Source: Alphaproteobacteria bacterium
GTDB lineage: Bacteria > Pseudomonadota > Alphaproteobacteria > JAJTHO01 > CANGYM01
Direction: 5' to 3'
Assembly (NCBI GenBank): GCA_947458235.1
Contig: CANGYP010000003.1
Location: 1-53,358 of the forward strand
Length of the DNA: 53,358 nt
The translations under genes were made by a program, and so were the position numbers. The notes beneath the pieces were generated by a model. It saw only the letters and a program-made list of their open reading frames with translations, searched no databases and had not been told where the DNA came from. Of this stretch, positions 3,757-39,626 are shown piece after piece; position 1 is the first letter of the stretch, and the number at the start of each line of letters is the position of its first letter.

Positions 3757-3758
3757 GG

Positions 3759-6381: not shown

Positions 6382-6412
6382 CCCCTGAGAAGGGGCGGGT
6401 TACAGTGGGGAC

Positions 6413-7066: not shown

Positions 7067-7371
7067 AGGTTAATGATGCAAAGGGATGCTAAGTGTTTCA
7101 GGGGCGTTTTTTTTTCAAAAATCCCCTCAAAAACCATTGCATTTTCTTCACATTTGCTGTGTAATTTCTTTTGTTGCCCTTGCGCGAAAGGCTTGGCGAT
7201 TCCTAGAAAAAAATATTTATTGCCGTATTTGACTATTTTTTTTCTAAAAAACAAGAATTTTTCTTCCAAAATCATAGTTTTTTTTAAGGACTTTTTAGGG
7301 TCAAGTCGGGGGTTTTTGCGCGCCCTTAACGAGTCTCCACCATTCCAACATCGAAACAAAATGGAGTTATT

Positions 7372-8769: not shown

Positions 8770-8902
8770 TCATGGATCAGGGGCGTCTGGTTTTTAGGGG
8801 GTGTGTTGAACAATTTTGTCTGTTGGCCTCTTGCCAAGAGAGGGGGAATGGTCTAGAGGTACAGATCCTTATCGGAACTGTTCTTTTGGAGACGAAATAC
8901 CC

Positions 8903-9325
8903 ATGGCCACGCAACGGACCCTTTCTATTATCAAGCCTGACGCTACCCGCCGCAATTTAACGGGGGAAATCAATGCCCGTATCGAAAAATCGGGTCTGCG
9001 TATTGTGGCACAAAAACGAACGGTTTTAAGCCGTGCCCAAGTAGAGACCTTTTACGCTGCCCACAAAGATCGTGCGTTTTTCCCAGATTTGTGTGCGTTT
9101 ATGGCTTCAGGTCCTGTGGTGATTCAGGTTCTGGAGGGGGCAGAAGCTGTCAAAAAATACAGGGCCTTGATGGGGGCCACCAATCCCTCTCAAGCGGACC
9201 TTGGGACCCTAAGACGGGATTTTGCTGAGTCCATCGAGGCGAATTCTGTTCATGGTAGCGATTCCGAGGAGGCTGCTCATGAAGAAATTGCCTTTTTCTT
9301 TGCCAAAATGGACATTGTTGGCTAA
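8903..9325 (+). CDS. ndk: Nucleoside diphosphate kinase
   Basis: [24 protein letters not shown]. Confidence 0.98.
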
Positions 9326-9383
9326 GGTTTTTCGGGCGACGTCGTTGCCTTGATGCTCCTCACCCCCAGTTTTGGAAGGGATT

Positions 9384-10466
9384 ATGACCCTTTACGTGCG
9401 CCTGTTTTCTAAGCGTCTGGTGTGGGTCTTTGGCGGGGTATTCTTGGCTTTGTTGGCGTTGGCGTGGATGGGCCGCATTGTTCAGTATATGGACATTTTG
9501 CAGCAGGCTTCCATTCCCTTATCTGTCTTTTTTTCGTGGGTAGCTTTGCTGTTGCCCTATGTGATGTATATGATTTTGCCCATGGTGGCAGCAGTGACCA
9601 CGTTTTTGGTCTATCATTATGGGCATCAGCATCATATTTTGACGATTTTGGCCAGTGTGGGGCTTTCGGCGGGTCCCCGTATGCGTCCTGCTTGGTATTT
9701 TGGGGCGATGTGTGGCGGTGTGGCTTTGATTATGTCGTTTATTGTCGTGCCAGCCAGTTATCATGGGTTTAAGGTGAAACAAAATGCCTTTCGTCAGCAA
9801 CAGCTCGTCAATTTGATTCAGCCCCATCAATTTTTTACGATGGACAAAAAAACTTTTTATGTCAATAATGTAGCAAAAGACGGGGGTCTGAAGGATGTTT
9901 TGATTTGGACCCATCAAGAGGCTAGCCAAACCTTCCTTTATGCCAGAGCTGGTCGTCTGGTTCAGGAAGAGGAGGGAGTTTTTTTGGTGCTAAAGCAGGG
10001 ATATCAGACGTTGTTGGATGATCGTGGGCAGGTCTCGCGATTGGATTTTGATCACTATCAGTTGCGGCTGGATCAACAAACCACTGAGGTTTACCAAAGA
10101 CGGAATATGTTGGAGTTTTCACCCATAGATCTACTGACATCGGATCGTTTTTCTAGCCCCCAGCAGGCTAAGCGTTGGGTAGGGGGGCATGTGCGGCTGT
10201 TATATCCCTTGCTGGCCGTGGTATTTGCGGTGTATCCAGCATTGGTTTTTTCAACGCTGCCTTTTTCCCGAACATCGGGCGTGATGCGTCCTTTGTTGCG
10301 GATTGTGCCCGTAGTGGTTGGGTTTTTTGGGGGGTTTTTGCTCCTTGGTCAAAGCGCTGAATCGTTTCCACCGCTGGTGTATGGGCTGTATGCGATGGTG
10401 ATGGTGGCCTTTATGCGGTTGGCTTGTCCTAGATTGACGTTCCCGCAGATCTTTAGGGGAGTATAG
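9384..10466 (+). CDS. lptF: LPS export ABC transporter permease LptF
   Basis: YjgP/YjgQ topology (3 TM, periplasmic beta domain, 3 TM); first of the pair upstream of lptD. Confidence 0.8.
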   Translation: MTLYVRLFSKRLVWVFGGVFLALLALAWMGRIVQYMDILQQASIPLSVFFSWVALLLPYVMYMILPMVAAVTTFLVYHYGHQHHILTILASVGLSAGPRMRPAWYFGAMCGGVALIMSFIVVPASYHGFKVKQNAFRQQQLVNLIQPHQFFTMDKKTFYVNNVAKDGGLKDVLIWTHQEASQTFLYARAGRLVQEEEGVFLVLKQGYQTLLDDRGQVSRLDFDHYQLRLDQQTTEVYQRRNMLEFSPIDLLTSDRFSSPQQAKRWVGGHVRLLYPLLAVVFAVYPALVFSTLPFSRTSGVMRPLLRIVPVVVGFFGGFLLLGQSAESFPPLVYGLYAMVMVAFMRLACPRLTFPQIFRGV

Positions 10467-13650: not shown

Positions 13651-15189
13651 TTAGCGGGGGGCAGGGGCCGTCTTGGGGCAAGTCCCCGCCAGTTCCGTTT
13701 GTTTTTCCTTGATTTTTGTGCTGATGGCGCAGCTAATGTTCAGGATTCTGGGATTCCATTGATAATCAGGGTTTTTGGTGTAGTACTCTAAAAATTGTTT
13801 CGCCTTGGCGGCGTAGGCCTTGGCGAAGCGGATTTCCCCCTCCAGAACGCGGGGGGTGTCGTGGGGATCATTGCCAGACAAAGGCATATAGGCGGCGGCT
13901 TTTTTTTGCAGATTGGTTTTGCGCTGGGCCAAAGAGAGCGGGGCAGGGGACAGGCCATCAAGGCCAGACTGATCCAGTGTCATGAAAAAAGTCGCCATAT
14001 CCTCGCGCTGGGCCTTAGCTTTGGCCACGGAGGGAGGCACCATGCGGTCATAGTCGGCTTTCATGGTTTGCAGATCTTTGGTGGCCTGCGCCACGGCGCG
14101 CCGCTGGCCATCAAGGGCGGACATAACAAAAGGGTTGTTTTTTAACGAAGGATTTTTTGCCAATGCCGCCTCGGCACGCGCCAAAGTCCTTTGTTGGCGG
14201 CGCAGGGCGTAATCTTGGCGTTGCATTTTGGCCTCAAACGCCATCCAGTTGCGGGTGGTGGTATCATACAGTTGGCTGTGTTGTTTGAACACGTTTTGCA
14301 CCAAAGCCACCCGATTTTCGGATTGTAACCATGCGGGGTTTTGAATCCCCGTTTGGCACCCCAGCAGATAAAAAAGGCCGCTGCTGTCAAAGGGCAGGGG
14401 GCGTTTCAGCAAAGTTTGTATCCCGCGGGAAAAGCGTTCGGAAAACACAGACGCATTGTTGGGGGTTTTGGTGGGAAAGCAAGCAGGGACCTGCGTTTGC
14501 AGGGTGTTTAGGGTTAATCCAGCATCACTCAGCTGGGTCAGGGTGTCTGTGACGCTAGAGGCTGTCATGGCCATCAAAGAGGTTAACGTGGCCCCCATGC
14601 GGGTCCGCAGAAGGCCAGCCTGTTCCGCGTCGCGCATACGGGCCAGCAGGTCATCCAAAAGTTGGGTCTCTAGGGCAAGGCCCCCGCCCTCTACGGGGGA
14701 TATTTTCAGGGGGCCTAGAAACTCTGGATTGGTTTGTAGGATTTTTTGCATGGCGGAGGCTGCCGAGAGGGGTTGGATCGCCGTCTCAGGGGCGGGCATA
14801 CCAGGCAGGGAAGGGGGGGGTAATGCGATTGGGGGGGTGCACCCCCGAATTTGCTGGTCATAGCGTTTTAAATCCCGAACAAATTTCTCATAGGCCTGAT
14901 CGGGTTTCAGGAAATAGGGTTGCAAAGTCTGAAACACCTGTTTGTGCTGTTCATTCAGGGCGATGATGGCCTCTTCATGGCGGATGGCGGCCTGAAAGGT
15001 GTTTTGAAACGTCAGGGATAGACTATCGCCCCGAATCAGGGTTTCTGTGGTTTTCCATTGGGTGGCGGCACTGGTGACTTGACGTGCCTGTGCCTGACTT
15101 TGCAAACACCGCAGGGTCCCCTGATCAAAGGGGGCAGCCCCCGCCGAGGGCCACGCAAACGCCAGAACAATCAAAATGAAAATCCCCAT
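13651..15189 (-). CDS. Hypothetical secreted helical/coiled-coil protein (512 aa), last gene of the T4SS-like operon
   Basis: Signal peptide, Gln/Ala-rich heptads, scattered Cys; co-oriented with virB4. Confidence 0.8.
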   Translation of the reverse strand: MGIFILIVLAFAWPSAGAAPFDQGTLRCLQSQAQARQVTSAATQWKTTETLIRGDSLSLTFQNTFQAAIRHEEAIIALNEQHKQVFQTLQPYFLKPDQAYEKFVRDLKRYDQQIRGCTPPIALPPPSLPGMPAPETAIQPLSAASAMQKILQTNPEFLGPLKISPVEGGGLALETQLLDDLLARMRDAEQAGLLRTRMGATLTSLMAMTASSVTDTLTQLSDAGLTLNTLQTQVPACFPTKTPNNASVFSERFSRGIQTLLKRPLPFDSSGLFYLLGCQTGIQNPAWLQSENRVALVQNVFKQHSQLYDTTTRNWMAFEAKMQRQDYALRRQQRTLARAEAALAKNPSLKNNPFVMSALDGQRRAVAQATKDLQTMKADYDRMVPPSVAKAKAQREDMATFFMTLDQSGLDGLSPAPLSLAQRKTNLQKKAAAYMPLSGNDPHDTPRVLEGEIRFAKAYAAKAKQFLEYYTKNPDYQWNPRILNISCAISTKIKEKQTELAGTCPKTAPAPR

Positions 15190-15222
15190 GCTCTACAGTC
15201 TTTCTTCGCGTCCCTGTTGCCG

Positions 15223-16398
15223 TCACTCTTGCCACACGTGGTAGTTGGGATTGTGGTAAAGGGCATGCAGCGAATCGCGCTGCAGTTTTAGGTTTTTCAG
15301 GTGGATTGTGTATTGTTCCAGCAGGCTGCGATCGGCCTCCAGCTTTTGGATCATGGCCAGACTGCGGATGATGCATCCAGAAATGGGCATATTCAGCGTT
15401 TGCAGCTTTGTGGAAAACGCGGCGCCTAGGCCAGATAAGCCACCGCCGATGAGGGGATCTTTAATGAATTGACTGGAAAATCCCGCCAATTCCCCAATAA
15501 TGGCGAGGGGGTTTTGGTTTTGAAAGACAGAAAGATCCTCCACACAGGGTTCATACAGGGTTTTGACGAGGTCTTCTGTAAACAGTTGCCGCATATGGTC
15601 ATGCACACGCCGCATCTCAGAAAAGGCATTCATGCTATAGGCCGCATGGTTGACGATGGCACTTTTGTAGGTTGCCTCCAGACATTGTTTTTGGGCCGCG
15701 AATGTTGTGTTATCACGCTGGTCTTTGTTCAAATCGATCATCTCTGCGATGGTTTTCTGGGCACACTGCATTATATATTGTGTGCGTTGGGCGTCGGTGA
15801 TTTTTTTTTCCGCTATGGCCAGATCCGCCAGTTTTTCACACTGCAAACAGCCAAAATCCGTGGGGGCGGGGTATATTTGGCGGGATTCCTCGATCAGGGC
15901 CCGCATTTTGGCATCGGGCATACCGATGGCATTTTTGATGCCTGTTAGTAAATAATACTGCTCACTGCGTTGTTTCAAAAGGTAATCGAGTTGGGCCGAT
16001 GTGGCTTTGAACTCATTAACCCGCTGGGTTTCATAAAATTGCCGACTGCCGGGCAGCATGGTCAGGTCTGTGACGCAAAACCCCGCTCCGCACCAAGTCG
16101 CATGACAGGGAATGTATCTAATGCAACCAAAACTTCCTGGGGAACATGGTTTACCAGGACATAAACAGCAACCATTAACATTAGGCGTAGGGTAACAAGC
16201 TGAATCCACGCATATATTCACCGGCATAATGGGTGGCGTGGGGATGGATGGCACATAGGCTGGCGGTGCCCCTAGCCCCAGCAGGTTGCTGCCTGCGTTG
16301 GCGGCGGTTGTGGCGGTTGAAACAATATCCGCCACGGGCACGGCCCCCGCCGTTGCCGACAGCCCTGTGATCAGCAAAAACAGGATCGCCCAGCGCAT
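15223..16398 (-). CDS. Hypothetical secreted protein with Cys-rich module (391 aa), possible VirB5-like minor pilin
   Basis: Signal peptide then AVPVAD (like VirB5 G[IV]PVxD), 10 Cys in residues 63-108, helical C-terminus; function inferred. Confidence 0.75.
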   Translation of the reverse strand: MRWAILFLLITGLSATAGAVPVADIVSTATTAANAGSNLLGLGAPPAYVPSIPTPPIMPVNICVDSACYPTPNVNGCCLCPGKPCSPGSFGCIRYIPCHATWCGAGFCVTDLTMLPGSRQFYETQRVNEFKATSAQLDYLLKQRSEQYYLLTGIKNAIGMPDAKMRALIEESRQIYPAPTDFGCLQCEKLADLAIAEKKITDAQRTQYIMQCAQKTIAEMIDLNKDQRDNTTFAAQKQCLEATYKSAIVNHAAYSMNAFSEMRRVHDHMRQLFTEDLVKTLYEPCVEDLSVFQNQNPLAIIGELAGFSSQFIKDPLIGGGLSGLGAAFSTKLQTLNMPISGCIIRSLAMIQKLEADRSLLEQYTIHLKNLKLQRDSLHALYHNPNYHVWQE

Positions 16399-16400
16399 GT

Positions 16401-18167
16401 TTATTCAAGATCTAGGGCTATCGTCTTAGGCCCAGATTCAAAAAAATCCCCCATGCTGGCACAGACATTTTGCAGAATGACCTGCTCTGCATTGACGTTG
16501 GCCATGACCAGATTGTACATGGACAGCCCGATCAGGACGTTGAGTTGGCTGGACACAGCACCATTCTCGCCAGCGCTGGACAAGGCAGCGGCCTGTAACG
16601 AGGCGATGGAGGGACACAATGTTTTTTTCCCATCTTTCCCACTCTTGGTCTTATACAAGGCTGTTTTGCATAGGTTTGAGTTGGTATTTGTTCCCAAAAA
16701 CAAGTCCTGCATCAGTTTTGCCGGTCCCTGTTGTTGCATGACGGCCATGGCGGCGCAGCGGGATTTTGACAGGCCTTGGAAATGACGGTTGACTTGATTT
16801 TCTATCTTGACACAGTTGGATGTGCTGGTCGCTATATTGCGGTTACAGTTTTTGAGGGATCGTAAAATCTCCTCCATCGCTTCGAGTTCGGACATTTTGG
16901 TCTTCGTTCTTGGCAAGGGCGCCGTATTGGGGGTGTCCATGGGTAGGATGCGGGGCGTGCCTGGGCCGCCAGGCTTCACGTCACCGGGGTTACCGCCATC
17001 TTCCCATGGCAAAGGTTTTTTTGGGTTGATGGCACTGATCTTATTCAATGTATCCACCAGTCCTGAGACTAAACCTACTTGTGCCATCCAACCGTTGATA
17101 GGACCAAGGAAGGTTGCGAGATTCGTCACAGCCTTTTGCCATTCCTTCACTTTATCTTCGTCTTTTTTTGGCATAATGAGTCCGCCTTGGATGAGAGATT
17201 CGGTGAGTTGGTTAGCTTGCAAAGCCTCGATCGTCTTTCTTATTGTGTCTGGATTCACGCCCCCACCAAATAAATCTATGATGCTGCCGATCAAGCCAAT
17301 CAGTGTGCCGAAGGCTTTGAGTTGTTCCATGATCTGCACAAATTGGGGGCCGAATGTGATACCAAAGGCTTCACCGAAGAGGTTCGCCATCTCCGTGAAC
17401 GTTGTGATACCAGAGGTCGTACAGGTAAAGATGTTTTTACAGGTTTGGAGTTTTTTGAATGATTCACTCGCGTTATCGATGTTTGTTTTCCATCTGTTAA
17501 TATCTTTCGTAAGTTGCGTAAGCTTGGCAAGGTAATCTGGTTTGTTGTCAAAATCCTTTAGTTTTGCTGTGCCCTTAAACGTAAATTGGTCTCCGTAAGG
17601 GTCGCGAGGGTCAAGATCAGGGATGGGTACGGGGGTTCCAAAATTAGGATTCGTTATAATATCAGGATCGGGGAGCGTGACATTGCCCCCACCCCCCCCC
17701 GGTTGTGGGATCACAGGGAGCGTGCCAATGTCCCCACCCCCCCCCCCCGGTGGGGGGGTCACAGGACGGGTCACAGGTTGGGTCGTTGTTGTAGATCCTG
17801 CCTCTTTTATGACATTATAGGCCATGGACAGTTCCCCCGTATAGGCCGCGTACAGGGAGCTGGAAAAGGCCAACAAAATTTTATCGCTGGTGACTGTTTC
17901 TTCGTCTTCGGGAATGTACTTAATAGCCGCCAGAATCTGATCCAGTTTGTCGTTGGTTTCGCCTTGGAGGCCGACAAGGAGCCCAAGCTGCACATTTATG
18001 GCGGTCAACAAGCCTATTTGTGTGCCCAAAAGCCCTTGGGCCACTGTATCCGACACCATCACCGTCGTGGGGGCCACGGCCGCCGAGGCCCCGTGCAGCG
18101 GCATCATCACCATCTGAATCGCGATGACAGAACACAGGATGCGTCGAAAAAGGGAAACCATAGCCAT
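16401..18167 (-). CDS. Hypothetical secreted protein (588 aa) with Pro/Gly linkers, possible VirB5/TrbJ-like adhesin
   Basis: Signal peptide, poly-Gly/Pro linkers, helical blocks, Cys pairs; directly downstream of virB4. Confidence 0.78.
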   Translation of the reverse strand: MAMVSLFRRILCSVIAIQMVMMPLHGASAAVAPTTVMVSDTVAQGLLGTQIGLLTAINVQLGLLVGLQGETNDKLDQILAAIKYIPEDEETVTSDKILLAFSSSLYAAYTGELSMAYNVIKEAGSTTTTQPVTRPVTPPPGGGGGDIGTLPVIPQPGGGGGNVTLPDPDIITNPNFGTPVPIPDLDPRDPYGDQFTFKGTAKLKDFDNKPDYLAKLTQLTKDINRWKTNIDNASESFKKLQTCKNIFTCTTSGITTFTEMANLFGEAFGITFGPQFVQIMEQLKAFGTLIGLIGSIIDLFGGGVNPDTIRKTIEALQANQLTESLIQGGLIMPKKDEDKVKEWQKAVTNLATFLGPINGWMAQVGLVSGLVDTLNKISAINPKKPLPWEDGGNPGDVKPGGPGTPRILPMDTPNTAPLPRTKTKMSELEAMEEILRSLKNCNRNIATSTSNCVKIENQVNRHFQGLSKSRCAAMAVMQQQGPAKLMQDLFLGTNTNSNLCKTALYKTKSGKDGKKTLCPSIASLQAAALSSAGENGAVSSQLNVLIGLSMYNLVMANVNAEQVILQNVCASMGDFFESGPKTIALDLE

Positions 18168-18212: not shown

Positions 18213-20663
18213 TTAAGAATCGCTGTCAAGGTAGATGTTCAGCCATTCGGATTGGTAATTTTGCATCAACCGCTCTGCCAAGGCGCGGGAGGGTTCATCG
18301 GAATAATAAATCCGCATCAACCGCCCCAGCGCGGACAGGTCCGTGTCCAGAATGATGGATTCCCCGCTGGCCCGTTTCATCAACACAGAGCGTTTCAGTT
18401 TCTTGGCGGCGGGCAGCTTGCCGCTGATGTACAGCCATTCTCGCTCGGTTAATCCCCAGTCCTGATATTCCCGCGCTTGGCCTTGGGGGTTGGGGAAGAA
18501 AAAGGTGGTTTGCGCCTGACCACGGATGGCCTCGCCGAGGCCGGCTTGGGTGATGGCCTCTGGCCGCTGGAACGCCGAAATGACGGCGCCGCGCCGTTTT
18601 CGATATTCCTGCAACATCTGCAAAAAATAATTCCGGAAAATGGGGTGCTTGACCACGGGTTCCGTTTCATCAATAAAAATCAGGGCAGGGGCCTTCAGTT
18701 CGGAAATCGTATCCTGAATACGGTGCATCAAATACAAAATCACGGCCCGCGCCAAATCATCATGTTCGTACAGGCGCGTAAAATCCAGCGCGACAATGCG
18801 GGATGTTTTTAAATCCAGCGTGTCTTGCTTGGCGTTAAAAATTTTTCCATAAACGGCAGGATCCACCCATTTGTGAAGGTTTTTCCGCAGCATACCGCCT
18901 TTGCTGTACACCGCATCATAAATGTTGGCCAGCGACCGCCGTTCATAGGGCAGGCCGGGGGTGTCATAGGCGGCCTCAATGGAAAACCCGATTTCCTCGA
19001 TGGCATCGGCATCCTGACAATCCGACAGCGCCTGAAGAAACGCCCTGAGAAAGGATCGGTTGGACGCATTATCCTTGAGCTGGAACGGATTCATGGACGA
19101 TTGAATGCCGGGGATGTTGGACCCCTCAAACGTAATATAACTGCCCGAGGCCGCGCAGGTGAACAGATACCCCCCCCCGTGACGGTCCACCATATAATAG
19201 CGTAAATCCTCGTGCCGCATGGCCATACCCGCCAGAAAGTTGATCAGCGTGGTTTTTCCGCCCCCTGTGGGGCCAATGCTGACGGCGTGGGCGACGGCGG
19301 CCTTTTCGGGTGAGATATGAAACTGAAAGGCGTAGGGCGTTCCAGAAATGGTCCGAAAGTTGGCAATAGGTCCCTTGCCCCAGTCCGAAGAGGTCAGCCC
19401 TGGAAAGGGGCGCTCAAACGTCAAATGCGTGGCGATGTTTTTGGAAAACAGTTTGTAGGGCCGCGGCCATAATTTGAAACTGGGGAATTGTAAAAACCAG
19501 CTGGCTTGCGCCACGGCCCCCTCGCGCACCACAGAGATCCCATAAGTGCTGGCGATGCGTTTGACTTCGGCTTCGGTGGCTTCCATTTCCTCCACCGTTT
19601 TGCCATAGCAAAACACCATCATCATGTATTGTGACAATACGTTGGTGCCGCCCGTGTTGCCCTCCACCGCATCCAGTGCCGTTTCAAATTGGGCGGCGGT
19701 GCCCGGACTGAATCGCTGGGCCAGAGACAATTTGTATTGGTGGGTGATGTGGATGGCGGCTTTGGTTTTGGTCCACGGTTCGATGACGTGGGACACAATA
19801 ATTTCTCCGTGAACGCTGTTTAGGGAATTGACATAGGCTTCGTAGGTAAAATCCCCCAGCGCCCGTAACCCGACACAGCAGCAATGCAGGGTTTTGTGGC
19901 CCGATCGGAACAGGATACCCCCATCATCCCCCCCAAATTCCACCTGATCCCCGCAAATGGCATCGGATGCCCCATCCCCCACCCCCCCCGGCACGGGCTG
20001 GGAAATCGGGCTGACAATACGGGAAAACACATACAGGGGGCGCATTTTCACATCGGGATGGCCTTGTGTCATGACCATGGGGCCATATTTGTGCAAAATG
20101 TTTTGGGTGATATCGATGACAGAGTTTAGCTTTTTCTGGGACGTTTGGTCTTTGTCAGGCAAAGAAAAAACCACAAACTGGCGGTTGCTATAGGCGCGGG
20201 CAAAGGTTCCGTTCCATCGTCTGGCAATTTCCCGCAACACAGGGTTGCTGTGGGTTGTGGGGGGTGCGACATCCACTCTTTCGCGGACGGTAAAGGCCCG
20301 AATGCTGACATGATAATCTTGCAGGGCATCGATCCAGTCCTTGCGTGCCAGCAACAGCATTTCACGGTCGTGATCGCTCATGAACGTATCATCAAAGCCC
20401 ATCATTTCCACGCATTGCACCAAGTCCCCGTTTTTACAGGCAATGGTTTTGCCATCGCTTAAGACCTTTTCAAAGGGCAGAACATCCGCCAGACGGTCTT
20501 CTCTGGGATAGGGCAGCAGGACGCGGGCCGTGGTGGGTATGGCGATGACGGCAAAGGCCACACCCGCCGCAATGACACCCAGCAGGGTTAGCAGCACAGA
20601 GACCACACTGAAATGTTCAGAAAACGCAGCCAAAACCTCGGGGGATAAAGACTCAGGGGACAT
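18213..20663 (-). CDS. virB4: VirB4-family type IV secretion ATPase
   Basis: Walker A GPTGGGKTT, Walker B LIFIDE, Y.FQFH...AH motif, EYRKRRG; 816 aa; follows virB2/virB3-like genes. Confidence 0.93.
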   Translation of the reverse strand: MSPESLSPEVLAAFSEHFSVVSVLLTLLGVIAAGVAFAVIAIPTTARVLLPYPREDRLADVLPFEKVLSDGKTIACKNGDLVQCVEMMGFDDTFMSDHDREMLLLARKDWIDALQDYHVSIRAFTVRERVDVAPPTTHSNPVLREIARRWNGTFARAYSNRQFVVFSLPDKDQTSQKKLNSVIDITQNILHKYGPMVMTQGHPDVKMRPLYVFSRIVSPISQPVPGGVGDGASDAICGDQVEFGGDDGGILFRSGHKTLHCCCVGLRALGDFTYEAYVNSLNSVHGEIIVSHVIEPWTKTKAAIHITHQYKLSLAQRFSPGTAAQFETALDAVEGNTGGTNVLSQYMMMVFCYGKTVEEMEATEAEVKRIASTYGISVVREGAVAQASWFLQFPSFKLWPRPYKLFSKNIATHLTFERPFPGLTSSDWGKGPIANFRTISGTPYAFQFHISPEKAAVAHAVSIGPTGGGKTTLINFLAGMAMRHEDLRYYMVDRHGGGYLFTCAASGSYITFEGSNIPGIQSSMNPFQLKDNASNRSFLRAFLQALSDCQDADAIEEIGFSIEAAYDTPGLPYERRSLANIYDAVYSKGGMLRKNLHKWVDPAVYGKIFNAKQDTLDLKTSRIVALDFTRLYEHDDLARAVILYLMHRIQDTISELKAPALIFIDETEPVVKHPIFRNYFLQMLQEYRKRRGAVISAFQRPEAITQAGLGEAIRGQAQTTFFFPNPQGQAREYQDWGLTEREWLYISGKLPAAKKLKRSVLMKRASGESIILDTDLSALGRLMRIYYSDEPSRALAERLMQNYQSEWLNIYLDSDS

Positions 20664-20949
20664 ATTTGCGGATCCCGTGCTTTCCCTTAATCAAATTGCG
20701 TGTGGATCGTTTGCTATAGGCCCATGCGGGGACAAGGGTGGCCATATGGGGCTCCCGCGCCCCTTGGGCGGCCAAAACCATATGGAAAACAATCAGGGAA
20801 ATGATAACTAACAACGGGCTGATTTTAAATAACCCCCACGCATACACAATGCCCAAGGCATGCAAGCCCATGTTAATGATGGCAGGGATCATGGGGGCCC
20901 AAAACAGGGTGGGGGGACTGGCAACAGCACGCATGACTTTTTCTGGCAT
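20653..20949 (-). CDS. virB3: VirB3-family type IV secretion membrane protein
   Basis: RAVASPPTLFWAP (VirB3 .ltRP.l.GvP-like), two TM helices, REPH; RBS before ATG at 20949; overlaps virB4 start. Confidence 0.82.
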   Translation of the reverse strand: MPEKVMRAVASPPTLFWAPMIPAIINMGLHALGIVYAWGLFKISPLLVIISLIVFHMVLAAQGAREPHMATLVPAWAYSKRSTRNLIKGKHGIRKYVP

Positions 20950-20980
20950 GGGAGAACCTTCCTGACAATACCCCCAGAGT

Positions 20981-21550
20981 TTAGGGGCCATTGGTTAAAT
21001 AATTCACAATGGCACCAGCAGAGGTGATAATCGCCAACCCTGCCGTTAACGCAAACAACCACCGAAACGGAAATTTCCCAAACAGCCCCATAATCCCCAA
21101 GGCCGCTGCCGCAACCCCGCCCAAACCGAACAGGACATTGCGGGTATCTGTAAATAACACCTGTCCTGTGTCCCCAATGACCTTGGCTGTTTCCGCATAG
21201 GTTGTCACATTCTGGTTGGGTTGTACAACCTCTTTATAAAGCCATTCGCACATGGCGGGGACCAAGCTGGCGATGACCAGCGCGGCCATGACGGTAAACA
21301 GCCAGCCCCAAGGCATCTGTCCCCCATACATGGCCCGAATGCCAATGCCCAGCATGGCCAGCGTGCCTAGGGCATAGATGATGGGTTTGGAACTGTTGAT
21401 GATTTCGCTGCCTTTGATCACAGCCTCTGAAAATGGATTGTCGGGGCCGGCGTTAACGCTGCAGGCGGCCCCAGTGGTGGCCGCTGACGCCTGTCCCCCC
21501 AGTCCCATGAGCATCAAAACCATCGCAAAAAGGATCATCCGCGGGGCCAT
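20981..21550 (-). CDS. Tandem double TrbC/VirB2-like pilin (189 aa)
   Basis: Signal peptide plus two hydrophobic hairpins, each with a G(Q/K)(M/F)P(W/F).WL motif. Confidence 0.78.
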   Translation of the reverse strand: MAPRMILFAMVLMLMGLGGQASAATTGAACSVNAGPDNPFSEAVIKGSEIINSSKPIIYALGTLAMLGIGIRAMYGGQMPWGWLFTVMAALVIASLVPAMCEWLYKEVVQPNQNVTTYAETAKVIGDTGQVLFTDTRNVLFGLGGVAAAALGIMGLFGKFPFRWLFALTAGLAIITSAGAIVNYLTNGP

Positions 21551-21562
21551 AGAGAGGGGTTC

Positions 21563-22216
21563 CTAGTTGGTTTTGGGTATGCTGTAATCGAGAGGTTGTA
21601 AAGTGCCACTGATGTTATCGTTGGGATTGGCAAAATTATCGCCCCCGACGTTATCGCCCCCCATAACCCCCACAACATCGGCCAGTTGCGCGGTAAAGGT
21701 AAAGCCCCCCAAAATGGCCATCATCCAGCCCCACCGAAAGCGGCCCGATAAAAACGATACGGCGGCCACGCCCATGGCCCCAAAGGCCCCCACGCCGTAC
21801 AAAACCTGCTTTAAACTGACGGCCACGGTGTCGCTGAATTTTTCTGTGGTTTGGAACAGCTCAACACCGTTGGATGTATAGCCGCTGTAGGCCCTGTATT
21901 GCTCGCGGACGGATCCATAAAATTCAGGCATGATGGACAAAAACGCCAAGGATCCGATATAGGCAAAAAAGTATCCCCACGGCCAGCGCCCCAACAGGGA
22001 CATGATAATCAGGCCAATGGCCCCCAAGCCCGCCAAACCAAACGCCACCCCGCCCATGTTATCGGCCATGCTGTTGGCGGAACCCTCTAATTTCGCGATG
22101 GGGGATTTTGCAATGGCGGCCGCTGTTTGGGTGAAAACAACCATCAGGCCCAAAACCAAAACCCCCCACCACAGCCCGCCGCCCAAACGTCGGAAAAAAC
22201 GGGGGGCGGGGGACAT
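21563..22216 (-). CDS. Tandem double TrbC/VirB2-like pilin (217 aa)
   Basis: Signal peptide plus two units: GLGAIGL..LGRWPWGY and GAFGAMG..SGRFRWGW. Confidence 0.78.
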   Translation of the reverse strand: MSPAPRFFRRLGGGLWWGVLVLGLMVVFTQTAAAIAKSPIAKLEGSANSMADNMGGVAFGLAGLGAIGLIIMSLLGRWPWGYFFAYIGSLAFLSIMPEFYGSVREQYRAYSGYTSNGVELFQTTEKFSDTVAVSLKQVLYGVGAFGAMGVAAVSFLSGRFRWGWMMAILGGFTFTAQLADVVGVMGGDNVGGDNFANPNDNISGTLQPLDYSIPKTN

Positions 22217-22250
22217 GGCGGGGGACTCCTGAATTGTTGATATAATGAAA

Positions 22251-22607
22251 TTAATCGCTGGTTTCTAGGCCACCAAGATTGGTTCCACCTCCAGCGAGGT
22301 TTTCAACAGCAAGGTTGTAAAGCCCAATCAGGGCCAATCCGCCGACCAGTCCAAAAAACCACCCCCATTGAAAGCGGCCAAAGAACGCCAAGGCACCCAA
22401 GGCTACGGCCCCTAAGCCGCCGATTCCATAGGAAATGGTGCGGCTGGCCTTGGTGGCGTCCCCGACGACACCTGACACCTCGGTGGTAATGTTTTGGCCC
22501 GTCAGCTGTCCATTCCCCCATGTGACTGAATTGTTAGCGAATGCTGGGGGGGAAAAAGCCATAAAGGCAACAAACATAAGACTGAAAAGGGTGAGTAAAT
22601 GTTTCAT
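22251..22607 (-). CDS. TrbC/VirB2-like pilin (118 aa)
   Basis: Signal peptide ending AFA, hairpin GGLGAVALGALAFFGRFQWGW. Confidence 0.85.
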   Translation of the reverse strand: MKHLLTLFSLMFVAFMAFSPPAFANNSVTWGNGQLTGQNITTEVSGVVGDATKASRTISYGIGGLGAVALGALAFFGRFQWGWFFGLVGGLALIGLYNLAVENLAGGGTNLGGLETSD

Positions 22608-22661
22608 AAGGGGATCTCCTAGTGATATTTGGATTTGTTAGATTCTCTCTATCCAAGATGG

Positions 22662-23012
22662 TTAAGGTGTACTGGTTTTGAGGTCGCTAAGGTTGCCTCC
22701 CCCTAGGTTGGTAACGGCCAAGTTGTAAAGCCCAATCAGGGCTAATCCGCCAACCAGTCCGAAAAACCATCCCCATTGAAAACGGCCAAAGAACGCAAGG
22801 GCCCCCAAGGCCACAGCCCCCAATCCCCCAATCCCATAGGAGATCGTGCGGCTGGCCTTGGTGGCGTCCCCGACGACACCTGACACCTCGTCTGTTATGG
22901 GACTGCCTTTGAGGTTCCCCGGAGCCCACTCCACTGGGCCAGCGGCGGCTGGGGGGGAAAAAGCCATAAAGGCAACAAACATAAGACTGAAAAGGGTGAA
23001 TAAAGATTTCAT
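22662..23012 (-). CDS. TrbC/VirB2-like pilin (116 aa), paralog of 22251-22607
   Basis: Same core as neighbour; start MKSLFTLF at 23012 with GGAG RBS. Confidence 0.85.
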   Translation of the reverse strand: MKSLFTLFSLMFVAFMAFSPPAAAGPVEWAPGNLKGSPITDEVSGVVGDATKASRTISYGIGGLGAVALGALAFFGRFQWGWFFGLVGGLALIGLYNLAVTNLGGGNLSDLKTSTP

Positions 23013-23064
23013 AAGGGTATCTCCGTTGATGTTGGTGTTCTGAGGGTGTTGGTTATGGTGTGCA

Positions 23065-23430
23065 TCAAAAGGGATCCCCCGTAAAAGCGGTGACGCCTGT
23101 GCCATAAAGGCCCACCAGCATCAATCCCCCCATCAATCCCCATAACCAGTTCCAATTAAAGCGGCCAAAAAACGCAAAGGCTGACAGGGCCACGACCCCA
23201 AGGCCGCCCAAGCCATAGCTGATTTGCCGCCCAGAAGATGCACTTTCATCCACAAAGGTTTCCATTTTTCCAATCACTTGATCGGGGGATTTAAAAGATC
23301 CTGTGGTGGTGGTGGGCCATCCCGCTGCATCGGCAGTTGTGGCGTGACCACACAGCAAAAGGCCAGCCAAAATCACAATCCCCAAAACACGACCACAAAG
23401 ATCGGAAAACGACAGAACGGCGTTTGTCAT
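23065..23430 (-). CDS. TrbC/VirB2-like pilin (121 aa)
   Basis: Signal peptide, ISYGLGGLG..AFFGRFNWNW core. Confidence 0.82.
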   Translation of the reverse strand: MTNAVLSFSDLCGRVLGIVILAGLLLCGHATTADAAGWPTTTTGSFKSPDQVIGKMETFVDESASSGRQISYGLGGLGVVALSAFAFFGRFNWNWLWGLMGGLMLVGLYGTGVTAFTGDPF

Positions 23431-33211: not shown

Positions 33212-34201
33212 TTAAGAAAGACTCCCTTTGCCCTGTTCCCCCCGACTCTTCCACAAAGAGTATACAATGCCCGAGGCCAGTAGCAGCACGGTCACGCTCA
33301 AACTGATCACGGCGGGAATTTTATCGATGCCCATGATATCGGCGGCTAGAACCTTGCCCCCGATGAAAATCAACACCACGGCCAAACTGTATTTCAGATA
33401 ATGGAACCGGTGAATAATAGCCGCCAAAGCAAAATACAATGCCCGCAGTCCCAAGATAGCAAAAATATTGCTGGTATACACAATGTAGGGATCTTTGGTA
33501 ATGGCGAAAATGGCAGGAATGCTGTCCACCGCAAAAATCACATCGGCAAACTCCACCAAAATCAAGGCCAGAAATAGGGGGGTCACAAAACGCTTTTTTT
33601 TCTTTGGGTTGTCGGGATCGGGCAGTCGAACAAAAAATTTATGACCATGTAAGGTATTGGTGACAGGCAAATGATTCCTAAGCCATTTCAAAAGAACATT
33701 ATCCGCCAAATCTGGATTTTTTTCTTTGGCGAACAGCATTTTAACCCCTGTCCCCACCAAAAAGACGGCGAAAATCAGCAACACCCATTCAAACCGCGCG
33801 ACCAAGGCAGCCCCCACAGCAATCATAATCCCCCGCAGGATGATGACACCCAAAATCCCCCACACCAAAACGCGATGTTGGTACTTTCGAGGTATGGAAA
33901 AAAAGCTGAAAATCATGGAAATGACGAAAATGTTATCCAATGCTAAGGTTTTTTCGATCAAAAACCCTGTCAGATACTCTTTGCCTGCTTGGGGGCCGAA
34001 TTCAAACCATACCCAACCGCCAAAGCAGAGGGCCAAAATAATATAAAAGGCGCTCAGGCCTAAACTTTCCCGAACGCCGATATCATGATCTTTTCTGTTT
34101 AAAAACCCCAAGTCAAACACCAAGAGGCCCAAAACAACCCCAAAAAAAAGACACCAGACCCAAATGGCCTTTCCCATCCAAAGGGCAGTTAAAAAATCCA
34201 T
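33212..34201 (-). CDS. TerC family integral membrane protein
   Basis: IEKTLALDNIFV, DVIFAVDSIPA, SNIFAILGLRALYF. Confidence 0.95.
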   Translation of the reverse strand: MDFLTALWMGKAIWVWCLFFGVVLGLLVFDLGFLNRKDHDIGVRESLGLSAFYIILALCFGGWVWFEFGPQAGKEYLTGFLIEKTLALDNIFVISMIFSFFSIPRKYQHRVLVWGILGVIILRGIMIAVGAALVARFEWVLLIFAVFLVGTGVKMLFAKEKNPDLADNVLLKWLRNHLPVTNTLHGHKFFVRLPDPDNPKKKKRFVTPLFLALILVEFADVIFAVDSIPAIFAITKDPYIVYTSNIFAILGLRALYFALAAIIHRFHYLKYSLAVVLIFIGGKVLAADIMGIDKIPAVISLSVTVLLLASGIVYSLWKSRGEQGKGSLS

Positions 34202-34216
34202 GAGCCCTATTCCTTA

Positions 34217-35224
34217 TTATACGTTTGACAAACGATACACCGCCGTCGCCACCACCATGATCAGGCTGAGGGGAAGAAAAACCTTCCACCCCAAGCGCAT
34301 CAACTGGTCATAGCGATAGCGGGGAAAGGTAGCACGTACCCAGATGAAACAAAATAGGATAAACACCACCTTCAGAACAAACCAGACAATGCCTGGAATG
34401 GCAGTGAACAAGGGGATATCCAGCGGCGGTAGCCATCCGCCCATAAACAAAATTGTGGTCATGCCTGCCATCAAAATCATGTTGGCATATTCGCCTAGAA
34501 AGAACAGGGCAAAGCTCATAGAGGAGTACTCCACAAAATACCCCGCCACCAGTTCCGATTCCCCCTCGGGCAGATCAAAAGGGGCGCGGTTGGTTTCGGC
34601 CAGCGTGGAAATAAAAAACACGATGAACATAGGAAACAGGGGAATCATGAACCAGCCATCTTTTTGGGCCAGAACAATCTCCGTCACATTCATGGACCCC
34701 ACCATCAGCAGGACCGTGACAATGACAAAGCCCATGGACACTTCGTAACTGACCATCTGCGCGGCGGAGCGCATGGCCCCCAAAAACGCATATTTTGAAT
34801 TGCTGGCCCACCCCGCCACAATAATCCCATACACACCCAGCGAAGAAATGGCAAACAGGTACAAAATCCCCACATTGATGTTGGCCAGAACCAAGGGTTT
34901 ACCGTCATCCGTCATCCCCACGGGCACCACGGCCCACGCCACCAAGGCCAAAACAAACGTCAGCATGGGGGCCCCGATGAACAGCCAGCGATTGGCGCCG
35001 CTGGGGAAAATGGTTTCTTTGGTGAACAATTTTAACCCATCGGCCAAGGGTTGCAGCAACCCAAACGGCCCCACCACATTGGGCCCCTTGCGCAATTGCA
35101 TGGCCCCGATGACTTTTCTTTCGAAATAGGTCAAATACGCCACCGCCACCAACAGCGGCACCGTAATGGCCAAGGCCCCAAGGACCATATAGAGAACATC
35201 CCAGAAAAGAGGATTCTCAAACAC
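34217..35224 (-). CDS. nuoH: NADH-quinone oxidoreductase subunit H
   Basis: ERKV....[32 protein letters not shown]. Confidence 0.98.
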
Positions 35225-37278
35225 TAAGCCACCGCTTTTTTGTCATCAGGATTCTGGCCCCCATACACAAACACACGGGCACATTCTGCCATGGTTTTCG
35301 ATGCCCGCGAAATGGGATCGGTCTGGTAAAAATTGCTAATGGGGTACACCAACGGGGCTTTGTCCAGCGTTTTGGGGCTTTGGGGAAAACGGGTCCAAGA
35401 CGGTGTCGGACACTGATCCCGAACCGCCAAAGCAGGATAGTGCTGCACCATGGCCAACCGAACCTCCTCCAACGTGCGATAGGTCAGCGAGACGCCAGAG
35501 ACATGATCTGCTAAGGCACGAAAAATTTTCCAGTCCTCTTTCGCTAAGTGGGGGGGGGTGACGGCAGGCAAAGCCTCTTGGATGCGCCCCTCGGTGTTGA
35601 CGTATAGGGCTTGCTTTTCTGTATAGGCCGCCCCAGGCAAAATCACGTCGGCATAATGGGCCGCTTTGTCGCCATGGTGGCCTTGATAAATCACAAAAGC
35701 CTTTTCCAAAACATCCGTGGGCACATCGTCCGCCCCGTACAGGTACAGCGTGGTCACGGCACCGCCGCGCACAGCATCAAACAGGGCCTGTTGCCCGCCC
35801 TGTGTCACAAAGCCCAAATCCAAGGCTGCCAGCGTCCCCACGTTGTGGTGCAAAACGTTAAACCCAACACAATCGGGCGTGATTATGCCCACGGATTCGG
35901 CCAGATCAGCAGCGTAGGCATAGATGGCCTCGCCGTCAGAACGTGCCAAAACCGATGCGCCCAGAATCAAGGCAGGACGCTGGGCTTTTTTCAGGATACC
36001 CGCAAAGGGAACCGCACCCTTGGCAAGGCCGCGCAAAACCTCCGCCGTATTGCCCAAATGGTCATAGGGATAGGTCAAATCCACAGCCTCCCCCACCAAA
36101 GCCACGGGCAGGGCGTTTTGCGTATAACGTTTACGAATGCGGGCGTTGATCAGGGGTGCTTCCCAACGGGGATTCGTGCCCACCAACAACAGGGCATCCA
36201 CCGATTCCAAGCCCGCAATGGTGGTGTTAAACATATAGCGAGAGCGATTATCGCGGGGAAACACGCCCCCGCCCGCGCCGTCATAACGCGTTACACCCGA
36301 GGCATCCAAAAGGGTTTTCAGCACAAACAGCGATTCCAGATCCGCCAAAGGTCCCCCTATGGCGGCCAATGTTTCGGGCTGGTGAAAGCGCTCGGCCACC
36401 GCGCACAGGGCTTGGTCCCAAGGGGCTTCCTTCAGATCCCCCTGATACCGGATATAGGGGCGATCCAGACGTTGGTACTTCAAGCCATCACAGGCGTGGC
36501 GCGCTTTGTCGCCGATCCATTCCTCGTTAATGTCCTCGTTCAGGCGGGGCAGGATGCGGACAACCTCCGCCCCACGCCCATCAATGCGGATGTTGCTGCC
36601 CACGGCGTCCAAAACGTCAATGGATTCGGTTTTTTCCAGTTCCCACGGGCGGGCATGAAAGGCGTAGGGCTTGCTGGTTAAGGCCCCCACGGGGCACAAA
36701 TCCACAATGTTGCCAGACAGTTCGCTGGCCACGGGGCGGCCCAGTGTGGTGATTTCCATAGATTCCCCGCGTCCCACGGCCCCCAAAGCGGGAACCCCCG
36801 CAATATCCTCAGCAAAACGCACGCAGCGGGTGCAGTGGATGCACCGCGTCATAACGGTCTTGATTAGGGGACCCATCTCTTTTTCAGGGACAGCCCGTTT
36901 CTCTTCGTGATAGCGGCTTTTGTCCATGCCGTAGGCCATGGCTTGGTCCTGCAAGTCGCATTCTCCGCCTTGATCACAGATGGGGCAATCTAGGGGGTGA
37001 TTGATCAATAAAAATTCCATGGCACCGCGACGGGCTTTTTGCACGCGGTCGTTGTGGGTGTGCACCACCATCCCGTCAGCCACGGGCATAGCGCATGAGG
37101 CAATGGGCTTGGGGGCCTTTTCCAGATCCACCAGACACATGCGACAGTTGCCAGCGATTTTTAAACGATCATGGTAACAAAAACGGGGAATTTCAACACC
37201 AGCCAGTTCGCACGCCTGAAGGACAGTGATCCCTGCAGGGGCCTCTAAGGTCTGACCATCAATTATCAGGGTGGGCAT
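35224..37278 (-). CDS. nuoG: NADH-quinone oxidoreductase subunit G
   Basis: [40 protein letters not shown]. Confidence 0.98.
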
Positions 37279-37408: not shown

Positions 37409-37438
37409 TGTGACTTTTGCCACAAATTTTATTATAAT
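37409..37438 (+). promoter_or_regulatory. CRP/FNR-type site (TGTGA-N6-CCACA) and -10 TATAAT upstream of the VirB6-like locus
   Basis: TGTGACTTTTGCCACA at 37409-37424 (1 mismatch), TATAAT at 37433-37438. Confidence 0.5.
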
Positions 37439-37457
37439 CACCCTCTAGGGAGATTGC

Positions 37458-39626
37458 ATGACAGCACGATTCGGCTTTTTGCGGCGTGTGGCGGCCTTGG
37501 CGTTGTGCCTTGGCGCGATGGTGTTGATGGGCGGGCAGGGGGCGTGGGCTATGTCTTGCGTTCAGGCGGCTGAAATTGTGGATGCCCTGTATAGTACGGG
37601 GGCAGGTGCGGGTAGCAATGGGATTCCTGGGGATTACAAACCCCCGTGTCAGTTACCTGCTGGCAGGATTATTGCCATCCAAGCTACTGAAAGTGGTCCC
37701 TATGGAAATTCTGGAACAGAATCAGGAGGAGGTGCCAAAGGTTGTGGGCAGTTGATCGGGCATAAAAATCCCACTTACCCTATTGGATCCAAGACCTTGA
37801 GCTATGATCTCCTAGGCAACAATATACACAATCTCTTACGGGGCGCAGAATATCTTTGTTATTTGCAAGATTATTTAAGATTGTATGTAGATGAAGATCG
37901 CTGCGAACTCATAGCCGCTGCCTATAATGCTGGGGAAGGTGTCGTACAAGGTGGTATACGATTGAACAAATCTCGTGGAAAACCACTGACGTTGGAGAAC
38001 ATTTTGGAAGCAGGTGTGCCATTATTTCCTAGACTGTACCCTGTTCCTCAAAAAAAAATAAAAGAGGCTTTGGGCCATGCAGGATGCACCTGCGGGGGAG
38101 AATATAGAAAATATGTTGAATCTGGACGGTTTTGTCGCCCCAACGGCGGCGGCATCGGCGGCATCGGCAACGTGGCCACAGGGGTTTTGATTGTGGATCA
38201 AATCGCCGATGTGGGCACGGGTGTGATTCAGGCGTTGGCCAGTGTGGTGAAAACGGCTGTTGTGTTGTTTGACAAACATCTGGGACCTGCGTTGTTGAGT
38301 GTGGTGATGGTGATTTACAGCATCATGGCCCTGTGGGCGATTGCCAAGCTGCTGATGCCCTTTGGCCGTCCAGGGAATGCGGGCCAGACCATGAACGGTC
38401 TGTTGACCTTGACGGGTACGGTGGGGATTGTGGCGTTGATGTTGAACAATCTCAGTTTGCTGACGTCCATGGTGTTTTTTCCCATCATGAGCTTAATGAC
38501 AGAGCTGGGGGATCTGAGTGCCAGCAGTTGTCAAAGTGCCAGCACACTCTCCACCCCATGCACTGCGGCCAATGCCCAATCCCTGTCGGGGGATGTCGCC
38601 AAAGATGCCAAGCTGTTGGCCACCCGCATGACCTGTACCGTGGATCAGGCCATGCAGCCCCTGAAACAAATCCTGCGCATTTCCATGGCCAGCCTGAAAC
38701 GGCTGGAGGGGGATTTTCAGAGTCCAGAAGCGTCCTTTATCCAAAACATCACGGATAGACTCCCGGGTGCGAAGTTTTCTGTTCTGGGACTGGTGGGTGG
38801 AAAGATCGATGAAGCCAAAACACAGAGCACGCAGATTTTGGTATTGGCCAGTGCGGTCCCCTTGGCGGTGATGTCGGCGACGTCCATTTTGGGCATCGTG
38901 GCCACCACGGCGCAGGCCTTTTGGAAAATTGCCTTTGAATTTTTTAAACTGGCCCCTGCGGTGGCGGCCTTTGCCTTTCGTCCCACACGGGGTGTGTTTT
39001 CCACCAGTGTTAAGGGGTGGATCAGCCCCATCATGATCTTTGCGGTGATTTACAGCATATTGGGCCTATCGTCGGGCATTGTATGCAATCTGCCCTTGGG
39101 CAAAACGGCCGATGGGAAAGACTACACATTAGGTGAGAGTGGCGATGCGTATGTTGCGGGTATTCCTGATGCGCCTGTTATAGGGACGCTCCCTGATCTT
39201 TTTCAATGGAAGTCGGGCGAGGCCCTGTTCCCTGTTTTAACCAAAAGCGTTTGGATCACGTTGGCCTTTTTCACCATTTTTATTAACAGCTCGTTGCGGT
39301 TGGCTGCCAAGATGGATTGGGTGGGCGGCGGCGGTCTGGCCGATGGTCTGCAAAAATTGGTCAGCAATACCTTGGGCAATCTGGATCATTACAAAGCCCT
39401 GATGCAAAAAACCGTGGGCTTGGCCAGCGATGTGGCCCAAAATGCTTGGATGAAATCTGGGGATGAGAAAAAGAAGGACAAAGAAGATAAAAAAGATGAT
39501 GGTAAAGAGGGTGACAAGGACAGCAAGCCTGCGGACGGATCGTCCTCGGAAGGGGGCCAGAGCAACACCGACCAAAGCGGGGGTAGCCAATCGGCCCCAA
39601 GCCCGCAGGAAAGGACCCCCGTATGA
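37458..39626 (+). CDS. Lytic transglycosylase (SLT) domain fused to VirB6/TrbL-like polytopic membrane domain (722 aa)
   Basis: Signal peptide; SLT motifs ATES (E78), GAKGCGQL, N...GAEYL, AAYNAGEG; then multiple TM helices and a charged low-complexity tail; VirB6 identity inferred from topology. Confidence 0.72.
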   Translation: MTARFGFLRRVAALALCLGAMVLMGGQGAWAMSCVQAAEIVDALYSTGAGAGSNGIPGDYKPPCQLPAGRIIAIQATESGPYGNSGTESGGGAKGCGQLIGHKNPTYPIGSKTLSYDLLGNNIHNLLRGAEYLCYLQDYLRLYVDEDRCELIAAAYNAGEGVVQGGIRLNKSRGKPLTLENILEAGVPLFPRLYPVPQKKIKEALGHAGCTCGGEYRKYVESGRFCRPNGGGIGGIGNVATGVLIVDQIADVGTGVIQALASVVKTAVVLFDKHLGPALLSVVMVIYSIMALWAIAKLLMPFGRPGNAGQTMNGLLTLTGTVGIVALMLNNLSLLTSMVFFPIMSLMTELGDLSASSCQSASTLSTPCTAANAQSLSGDVAKDAKLLATRMTCTVDQAMQPLKQILRISMASLKRLEGDFQSPEASFIQNITDRLPGAKFSVLGLVGGKIDEAKTQSTQILVLASAVPLAVMSATSILGIVATTAQAFWKIAFEFFKLAPAVAAFAFRPTRGVFSTSVKGWISPIMIFAVIYSILGLSSGIVCNLPLGKTADGKDYTLGESGDAYVAGIPDAPVIGTLPDLFQWKSGEALFPVLTKSVWITLAFFTIFINSSLRLAAKMDWVGGGGLADGLQKLVSNTLGNLDHYKALMQKTVGLASDVAQNAWMKSGDEKKKDKEDKKDDGKEGDKDSKPADGSSSEGGQSNTDQSGGSQSAPSPQERTPV

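Follow-up and report, generated by a model that had tools for sequence, protein, structure and literature searches.

Why would a bacterium join a wall-cutting enzyme to a membrane subunit of a secretion channel in a single polypeptide, when the two tasks ordinarily fall to different proteins? The question is raised by one gene in a contig of 53,358 nucleotides (CANGYP010000003.1; contig C3 of the genome, referred to below as the window) from an alphaproteobacterium whose genome assembly comprises 1.40 Mb in 97 contigs and is 94.7% complete. The predicted product, called here the fusion protein (Table 1), contains a signal peptide, a lytic transglycosylase domain of the SLT type and a polytopic membrane region, and an earlier note on this DNA had proposed that it is an SLT enzyme fused to a VirB6-like membrane protein. 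The reading that we favor, with a probability of roughly 0.6, is that this one polypeptide is both the VirB1-type lytic transglycosylase and a VirB6 subunit of a chromosomal, rvh-like type IV system, and that it opens the cell's own wall at the site of assembly. The parts belong to known families, and their combination as SLT-VirB6 has not been described in the literature covered, in which the papers cited below are represented by portions of their text. In that literature no VirB6 fused to a lytic transglycosylase, an M23 domain or another peptidoglycan hydrolase turned up, although such a fusion may still have been published.

The enzyme half is recognizable in its motifs, in a profile match and in its predicted fold. 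The motifs named in the earlier note are all found at the positions given there, namely A76-T77-E78-S79, G95-C96-G97-Q98-L99, G129-A130-E131-Y132-L133 and A155-Y156-N157-A158-G159, and can be compared with what we take to be the motif set of the family: a catalytic glutamate (E-S) ending a helix, a G-L-M-Q-like motif, and A-Y-N-x-G. The second of these is degenerate in the fusion protein, which has G-C-G-Q-L instead of G-L-M-Q. The leader ahead of them reads by eye, as had been claimed, as a Sec-type signal peptide spanning residues 1-31 and ending in AWA. The Pfam SLT profile (PF01464), suggested earlier as a check, matches residues 70-174 with 23.0 bits against a cut-off of 21.3 (E 6.3e-5, profile positions 16-112 of 117), a narrow margin. 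In the family alignment, which holds 21 of the 33 proteins found, a glutamate is present in all 17 relatives that cover the E78 column; Y156, N157 and G159 are invariant, and so are cysteines 134, 149 and 226 of the SLT domain.

The AlphaFold model used here was built from a 42-sequence alignment and has a mean pLDDT of 69.4, with 80-93 over residues 250-620; a model from the shallow 21-sequence family alignment (mean pLDDT 39.2) was set aside. It places E78-S79 at the C-terminal end of a predicted helix (residues 70-79) and bears out the lysozyme-like fold expected of the N-terminal part. The best structural matches of residues 31-242 are E. coli MltE and MltC (Z 8.1-9.3 over 151-155 residues, identity 19-22%): MltC (4cfo_A) aligns with residues 31-239 of the model at Z 9.3 and an rmsd of 3.9 over 155 residues (VIA-align), and MltE at Z 8.1-8.4 with 20-22% identity. 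Sequence searches of the PDB with the family profile gave no VirB6 and SLT rows only at weak E values of 0.23-0.85, and phmmer with the N-terminal domain found no PDB match at E <= 1. The NCBIfam VirB1 model (NF010438) likewise did not match the fusion protein at E <= 1, and the enzyme here is part of a membrane protein; its role may resemble that of VirB1, but it stands outside the VirB1 family. Judged from sequence and predicted structure, the domain is a divergent but recognizable lytic transglycosylase with its catalytic glutamate kept.

The membrane half contains five hydrophobic segments, at approximately residues 275-297, 316-345, 460-480, 522-545 and 591-612 (Kyte-Doolittle, window 19), and is followed by a tail (residues 668-722) rich in K, D, E and S, in agreement with the polytopic region and charged tail described in the earlier note. 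As in VirB6, the order of helices and loops is one of two N-proximal membrane helices (275-297 and 316-345), a loop of 110 residues (346-458) containing the invariant C368 and C393, and then three hydrophobic helices. The otherwise variable, disordered tail closes with R-T-P-V (residues 719-722, 39611-39623), of which R719, T720 and V722 are conserved in at least 90% of the 21 aligned sequences. When the model was compared by Foldseek with 350,542 PDB chains, places one to six were all taken by R388 TrwI/VirB6 with probabilities of 0.91-1.00, the best E value being only 0.012 and the rows below having probabilities of <=0.18. Alignment of TrwI/VirB6 chain 7o3v_J with model residues 247-628 gave Z 14.7 and an rmsd of 3.9 over 260 of 260 residues (VIA-align), and two further entries gave Z 14.4 (8rt9_F) and 13.8 (8rtd_I); the best unrelated helical protein in the structural list reached 11.7.

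The corresponding profile evidence is indirect. A Pfam TrbL (PF04610) scan, which had been put forward as a check on this half, found nothing on the fusion protein even at E <= 10, and the VirB6/TrbL similarity claimed for the C-terminal part is borne out by transitive profiles, by hhalign at 83% and by the full-length TrwI/VirB6 structural match rather than by a direct TrbL hit. An HMM of residues 231-670 from five members of the close family, searched against 1.84 billion representative proteins, recovers only ten proteins, six of them family members or fragments and four of them distant (P0040-43; 639-720 aa, E 1.0e-6 to 2.8e-5). Together with P0033 these four are the orthologues from further families of the order (336-520 bits). 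A second HMM, made from those five order-level orthologues alone and excluding the window's family, matches the fusion protein with 78.6 bits over residues 265-549, and matches tandem VirB6 paralogues of other small alphaproteobacterial genomes with up to 143 bits. Pfam TrbL in turn matches 11 of 13 such paralogue ORFs at E < 0.01, six of them over its cut-off. Comparison of the close family with 11 TrbL-positive ORFs by hhalign gave a probability of 83% (E 8.6e-6, 228 columns). In the ESM Atlas, TrbL is carried by 16 of the 30 clusters nearest to the fusion protein (score 0.93; 206 of 256 features shared), and word-indexed searches with two wider alignments returned the close family again and nothing further. 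By modeled fold and remote homology we take the membrane domain to be VirB6; having no direct TrbL match, it is filed as VirB6-like and not as a member of Pfam TrbL.

A type IV system that such a subunit could serve is encoded in the same genome, where VirB2, VirB3, VirB4, VirB8, VirB9, VirB10, VirB11 and VirD4 are present on three contigs (VirB5 was outside the search), with one VirB4 found. Pfam TrbL has no match in the whole genome at E <= 0.001, so that automatic annotation, missing every VirB6 of the genome, would call the system VirB6-less. The order-level HMM in contrast finds five VirB6-like paralogues: the fusion protein, its neighbor P0034 and three in tandem on contig C32. P0034 scores 29.2 bits with that HMM (E 7.7e-8), has another profile match at E 6e-7 and has TrbL on 10 of its 30 nearest ESM Atlas clusters, with no Pfam match; its orthologues (93-114 bits) adjoin the fusion gene in relatives. 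Scattered chromosomal vir genes and multiplied VirB6 paralogues are the marks of the Rickettsiales-type (rvh) system, and both are seen here as a likeness in gene organization.

The N-terminus of VirB6 is periplasmic in Agrobacterium, and an SLT domain placed there could meet its substrate in the following way. The leader would route the N-terminus through Sec and the SLT domain would fold in the periplasm, a location that fits because the conserved cysteines suit an oxidizing compartment. Anchoring of the fusion protein in the inner membrane would then fall to the two N-proximal hydrophobic helices, as it does in R388 TrwI. In the portion covered of a 2025 review, only two N-proximal helices of the R388 protein cross the membrane and the bulk forms a pentameric periplasmic stalk (PMC12857230), so the SLT domain would be tethered at the foot of the stalk. 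The remainder of the protein would become part of the central stalk formed by VirB6, perhaps together with the four other paralogues. Tethered in this manner, the enzyme would cleave the glycan strands of the bacterium's own wall at exactly the point that the channel has to cross, taking the place of a free VirB1, and the peptide cross-links there would be cut or remodeled by a sister paralogue with M23 and YkuD domains. We infer from this arrangement that the SLT domain opens the peptidoglycan at the secretion site; the earlier note had left the choice between the cell's own wall and that of a target, and action on the own wall fits the anatomy better.

Several observations weigh against this reading. 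TrbL, VirB6 and VirB1 models all lack a direct match (Pfam at E <= 10, NCBIfam at E <= 1), and the close-family HMM alone gives no more than 13.4 bits among 133 ORFs of TrbL-positive loci, so that TrbL is reached through intermediate profiles and through structure. For helical proteins, a similar arrangement can in itself yield Z scores of about 13-14; among the structures compared here, a designed repeat protein has a score of 11.7. On the enzyme side, the SLT score barely exceeds its cut-off and the model of the N-terminal domain is of moderate quality (pLDDT ~45-83). The N-terminal domain moreover differs in other families of the order. The gene itself lies between nuoG and cutA-ksgA-rpoN and not beside other type IV genes, and a stand-alone secreted SLT protein encoded 5.5 kb away could be the real VirB1.

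The genomic setting also bears on the explanation that the fusion protein is a housekeeping membrane-bound lytic transglycosylase that has co-opted a VirB6-like part as its anchor and acts in wall turnover, division or flagellum insertion. The neighbors of its gene are indeed housekeeping genes (nuoG, cutA, ksgA and rpoN), flagellar rod and ring genes lie 8 kb away, and no other vir gene is adjacent. However, the type IV genes of this genome are dispersed in any case, the fusion gene is always accompanied by a second VirB6 paralogue, and it is the membrane domain, rather than the enzyme domain, that is the more conserved; VirB6 is also essential, and the genome offers no other candidate for it besides this paralogue set. 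We consider a housekeeping role unlikely. The stand-alone SLT protein shares a leader and a TESG motif with the fusion protein and matches the NCBIfam VirB1 model weakly (17.7 bits where the cut-off is 212; E 0.0019), with a weak IagB signal as well. Its function could lie with the type IV system or with the flagellum. Its gene is located between pabB-like and flagellar genes.

Relatives of the fusion protein were found in metagenomes, 31 of them close (identity 52-72%) and one distant, and the related contigs come from metagenome-assembled genomes of freshwater Alphaproteobacteria. The gene is present in all six genomes searched from the same genus and in all seven from the same order, and any match to it is seen in four of 27 more distant members of the class; on these comparative grounds we regard the gene as real and under selection. 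Throughout the family the membrane domain is better conserved than the enzyme domain, the N-terminal domain being the most variable part. In P0033 this domain is a clear SLT (43 bits) and is aligned with that of the window's family by hhalign at 98%. Two orthologues of another family (L052 and L053) have SLT-like motifs and sub-threshold SLT scores of 17.0 and 14.1 bits, and the N-terminal parts of the remaining three order-level proteins examined have no Pfam SLT match. Between the window family's domain and two other types of N-terminal domain, hhalign detected no similarity: the probability was 1.3% for one and 40.9% for the other, where the alignment covered just the leader. In P0043 the N-terminal domain is a coiled coil. 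Because the N-terminal domain differs in this way among families of the order, the SLT enzyme is not indispensable to this VirB6 orthologue. Three loci (L045, L049 and L051) have in place of SLT a Cys-rich N-terminal domain of 250-280 residues with a conserved A-E-G-N-C; for this domain (P0040-42 and kin) Pfam has no match, and hhalign finds no resemblance to SLT.

Such variability would also suit an SLT domain that is catalytically weak or dead and binds peptidoglycan only, positioning the stalk or anchoring it in the wall. The marginal Pfam score (23.0 against 21.3), the G-C-G-Q-L where G-L-M-Q is usual, and the replacement of this most variable part of the family by other domains in other families of the order all speak for a loss of activity. 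The retention of the catalytic glutamate in 17 of 17 relatives, the invariant Y-N-x-G and the 20-22% identity to MltE in the structural alignment speak against it, and we think a purely binding domain quite unlikely.

The SLT-VirB6 protein is accompanied in this genome by a second fusion. One of the three tandem paralogues on C32 has a YkuD domain ahead of its VirB6 core (31.2 bits, cut-off 23.4) and a Peptidase_M23 domain behind it (38.6 bits, cut-off 28.7). M23 is present in all six long paralogues examined, five from the order and one from the nearest outgroup (G021), with 44-105 bits; four of these six also match TrbL at E < 0.01, one of them over the cut-off with 29.5 bits. Among 29 VirB6-like ORFs from nine other class-level genomes none has SLT, M23 or YkuD at E <= 0.001, while TrbL is found in 18, and wall-active domains on VirB6 paralogues thus characterize this clade within the set of genomes searched. 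The C32 paralogue also has a weak DnaJ signal near residue 1133, and its orthologue in genome G122 (L059:5260-9798) contains a clear J domain (63.8 bits).

That the SLT domain and its sister M23 and YkuD domains act in trans, exposed or released and attacking a target or host wall like bacteria-killing type IV effectors, we hold to be very unlikely: wall-active domains on two of the five VirB6 paralogues, including a weak Tlde1-like signal on YkuD (E 0.013), the small genomes (1.3-1.9 Mb), which would fit dependence on other cells, and the Rickettsiales VirB6 extensions, whose role is given as unknown in the portion covered of PMC12857230, are in its favor, but the SLT domain follows a Sec leader at the N-terminus and is separated from the first membrane helix by only ~20-45 residues, its position by TrwI homology is the foot of the stalk, remote from any target, and no immunity-type small gene was noted beside the fusion gene.

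Setting these alternatives aside, an SLT-VirB6 subunit that opens the cell's own wall can be compared with systems already described. R388 TrwI/VirB6 (PDB 7O3V, 8RT9, 8RTD) shares its fold over the whole solved chain, with two N-proximal membrane helices and then a helical body; identity is only 11-12%, and the fusion protein is larger, adding the 110-residue Cys-bearing insertion, the N-terminal enzyme domain and the charged tail, and lacking a Pfam TrbL match. MltE and MltC are outer-membrane lipoproteins of general wall turnover, whereas the SLT domain here would be tethered to an inner-membrane secretion subunit. VirB1 and the other specialized lytic transglycosylases of Gram-negative systems have an SLT domain with a catalytic glutamate and a presumed role in local wall opening in common with the fusion protein. 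Gram-negative VirB1 is, however, a soluble periplasmic protein according to the portion covered of the 2025 review, which also gives the role of the extended VirB6 domains as unknown (PMC12857230); in the fusion protein SLT is covalently joined to VirB6, there is no VirB1*-type C-terminal part and the NCBIfam VirB1 model does not match. Among Gram-positive conjugation systems, PrgK, TraG (pIP501) and Orf14 (Tn916) resemble it in carrying a wall-cutting SLT or CHAP domain in a membrane-anchored protein. As far as the review was covered, these three are of the VirB1 class and the VirB6 homologues PrgH and Orf15 are separate proteins (PMC12857230), in contrast to the single chain found here.

A parallel in gene organization is offered by RvhB6a-e of the Rickettsiales, which share several VirB6 paralogues (five here), scattered chromosomal vir genes and long flanking extensions. 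Within the portions covered, most Rickettsia genomes are stated to have five VirB6 paralogues, and RvhB1 and the five RvhB6 are treated as separate proteins in this 2009 paper (PMC2653234); the RvhB6 extensions are described as hydrophilic, of unknown function, central or C-proximal, and not as enzyme domains (PMC2653234, PMC12857230). Here, by comparison, the extension of one paralogue is an SLT domain and that of another consists of YkuD and M23.

If the assignment is right, the SLT-VirB6 and M23/YkuD-VirB6 fusions would provide one concrete function for the extensions of extended VirB6 proteins and would argue for opening of the wall at the VirB6 stalk. Since the enzyme domains must be periplasmic to meet their substrate, the fusions also place a testable constraint on VirB6 topology. 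A bolder proposal, which we regard as improbable, is that the multiplied VirB6 paralogues of the order carry a complete wall-cutting kit on the stalk, in which SLT would cut the glycan strands, M23 would act as endopeptidase on the cross-links and YkuD would add an L,D-transpeptidase-like domain. Under this proposal the enzyme domains, lying on either side of the VirB6 core, would make the fusions a natural topology reporter, showing that neither end of an extended VirB6 protein is cytoplasmic, in line with the R388 structure, and the kit may breach the wall of a bacterial partner too. The fusions also provide an entry point for studying type IV secretion in an uncultured freshwater lineage with small genomes.

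Table 1. Coordinates of the fusion gene, its domains and other features of the window and genome; positions refer to the window unless another contig is named.
Feature	Location	Strand	Basis or remarks
SLT-VirB6 fusion gene (P0001, 722 aa)	37458..39626	+	No internal stops
Putative signal peptide, residues 1-31	37458..37550	+	RR n-region, hydrophobic core, AWA end; eye reading of translation and hydropathy
Predicted periplasmic lytic transglycosylase (SLT, lysozyme-like) domain, residues 32-228	37551..38141	+	Pfam PF01464 and structural matches
Codon of presumed catalytic Glu78 (A-T-E-S)	37689..37691	+	Column conservation; model
VirB6-like domain, residues 247-628	38196..39341	+	Structure, profiles, hhalign, ESM Atlas
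Predicted disordered K/D/E/S-rich tail, residues 668-722	39459..39623	+	pLDDT < 50 at 670-722
Promoter-like site GTGACT-17 nt-TATAAT	37410..37438	+	Consensus scan, 10/12 positions
Ribosome-binding site GGGAG	37449-37453	+	Ahead of fusion-gene start codon
Second VirB6-like paralogue P0034, 526 aa	39623..41203	+	Start overlaps fusion stop by 4 nt (ATGA)
Type IV cluster (VirB2-like x5, VirB3-like, VirB4)	18213..23430	-	14 kb upstream
VirB4	18213-20663	-	PF03135, 30.4 bits, over cut-off
VirB3-like	20653-20991	-	21.5 bits, below cut-off of 23.9
Five tandem VirB2-like pilin paralogues	20981-23430	-	TrbC/VirB2: 36.6 and 30.6 bits over cut-off; 23.3, 15.3 and 14.1 under
VirB8, VirB9, VirB10, VirB11	contig C41		
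VirD4	contig C1		
VirB6-like paralogue, 1463 aa	contig C32 (L054), 6032-10423	-	YkuD 80-207, VirB6 core, Peptidase_M23 664-765
Stand-alone secreted SLT protein, 227 aa	45149..45832	-	Pfam SLT 28.7 bits; 5.5 kb downstream

The promoter-like site ahead of the fusion gene is a hint only, because six such sites in the region are not above the 5.5 expected from shuffled sequence. Parts of the fusion gene and of P0034 are covered by short contigs (150-423 nt, 0-17 differences) in four RNA libraries from two studies, which show neither transcription nor an operon since DNA can occur in such libraries. In relatives too, ksgA and rpoN lie downstream of the fusion and paralogue pair.

Directly downstream of virB4 on the minus strand (13651-18167) are three ORFs of 588, 391 and 512 aa with signal-peptide-like starts and no further membrane helices, apart from one weak segment in the first; none has a Pfam family. 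In Rickettsia this position downstream of virB4 is occupied by VirB6 paralogues. On contig C41 (L011) the VirB10 homologue (3613-5316, 567 aa) is extended at its N-terminus by an Ig-like segment whose score falls just short of the cut-off (HYDIN/VesB-like, 24.1 bits), and a 388-aa ORF with no family assigned lies between virB9 and virB10. Upstream of the fusion gene on the minus strand (33212-37278), nuoG and nuoH are followed by genes of the TerC family and for a signal peptide peptidase (S49) where nuoI would be expected, and the complex I operon is therefore interrupted.

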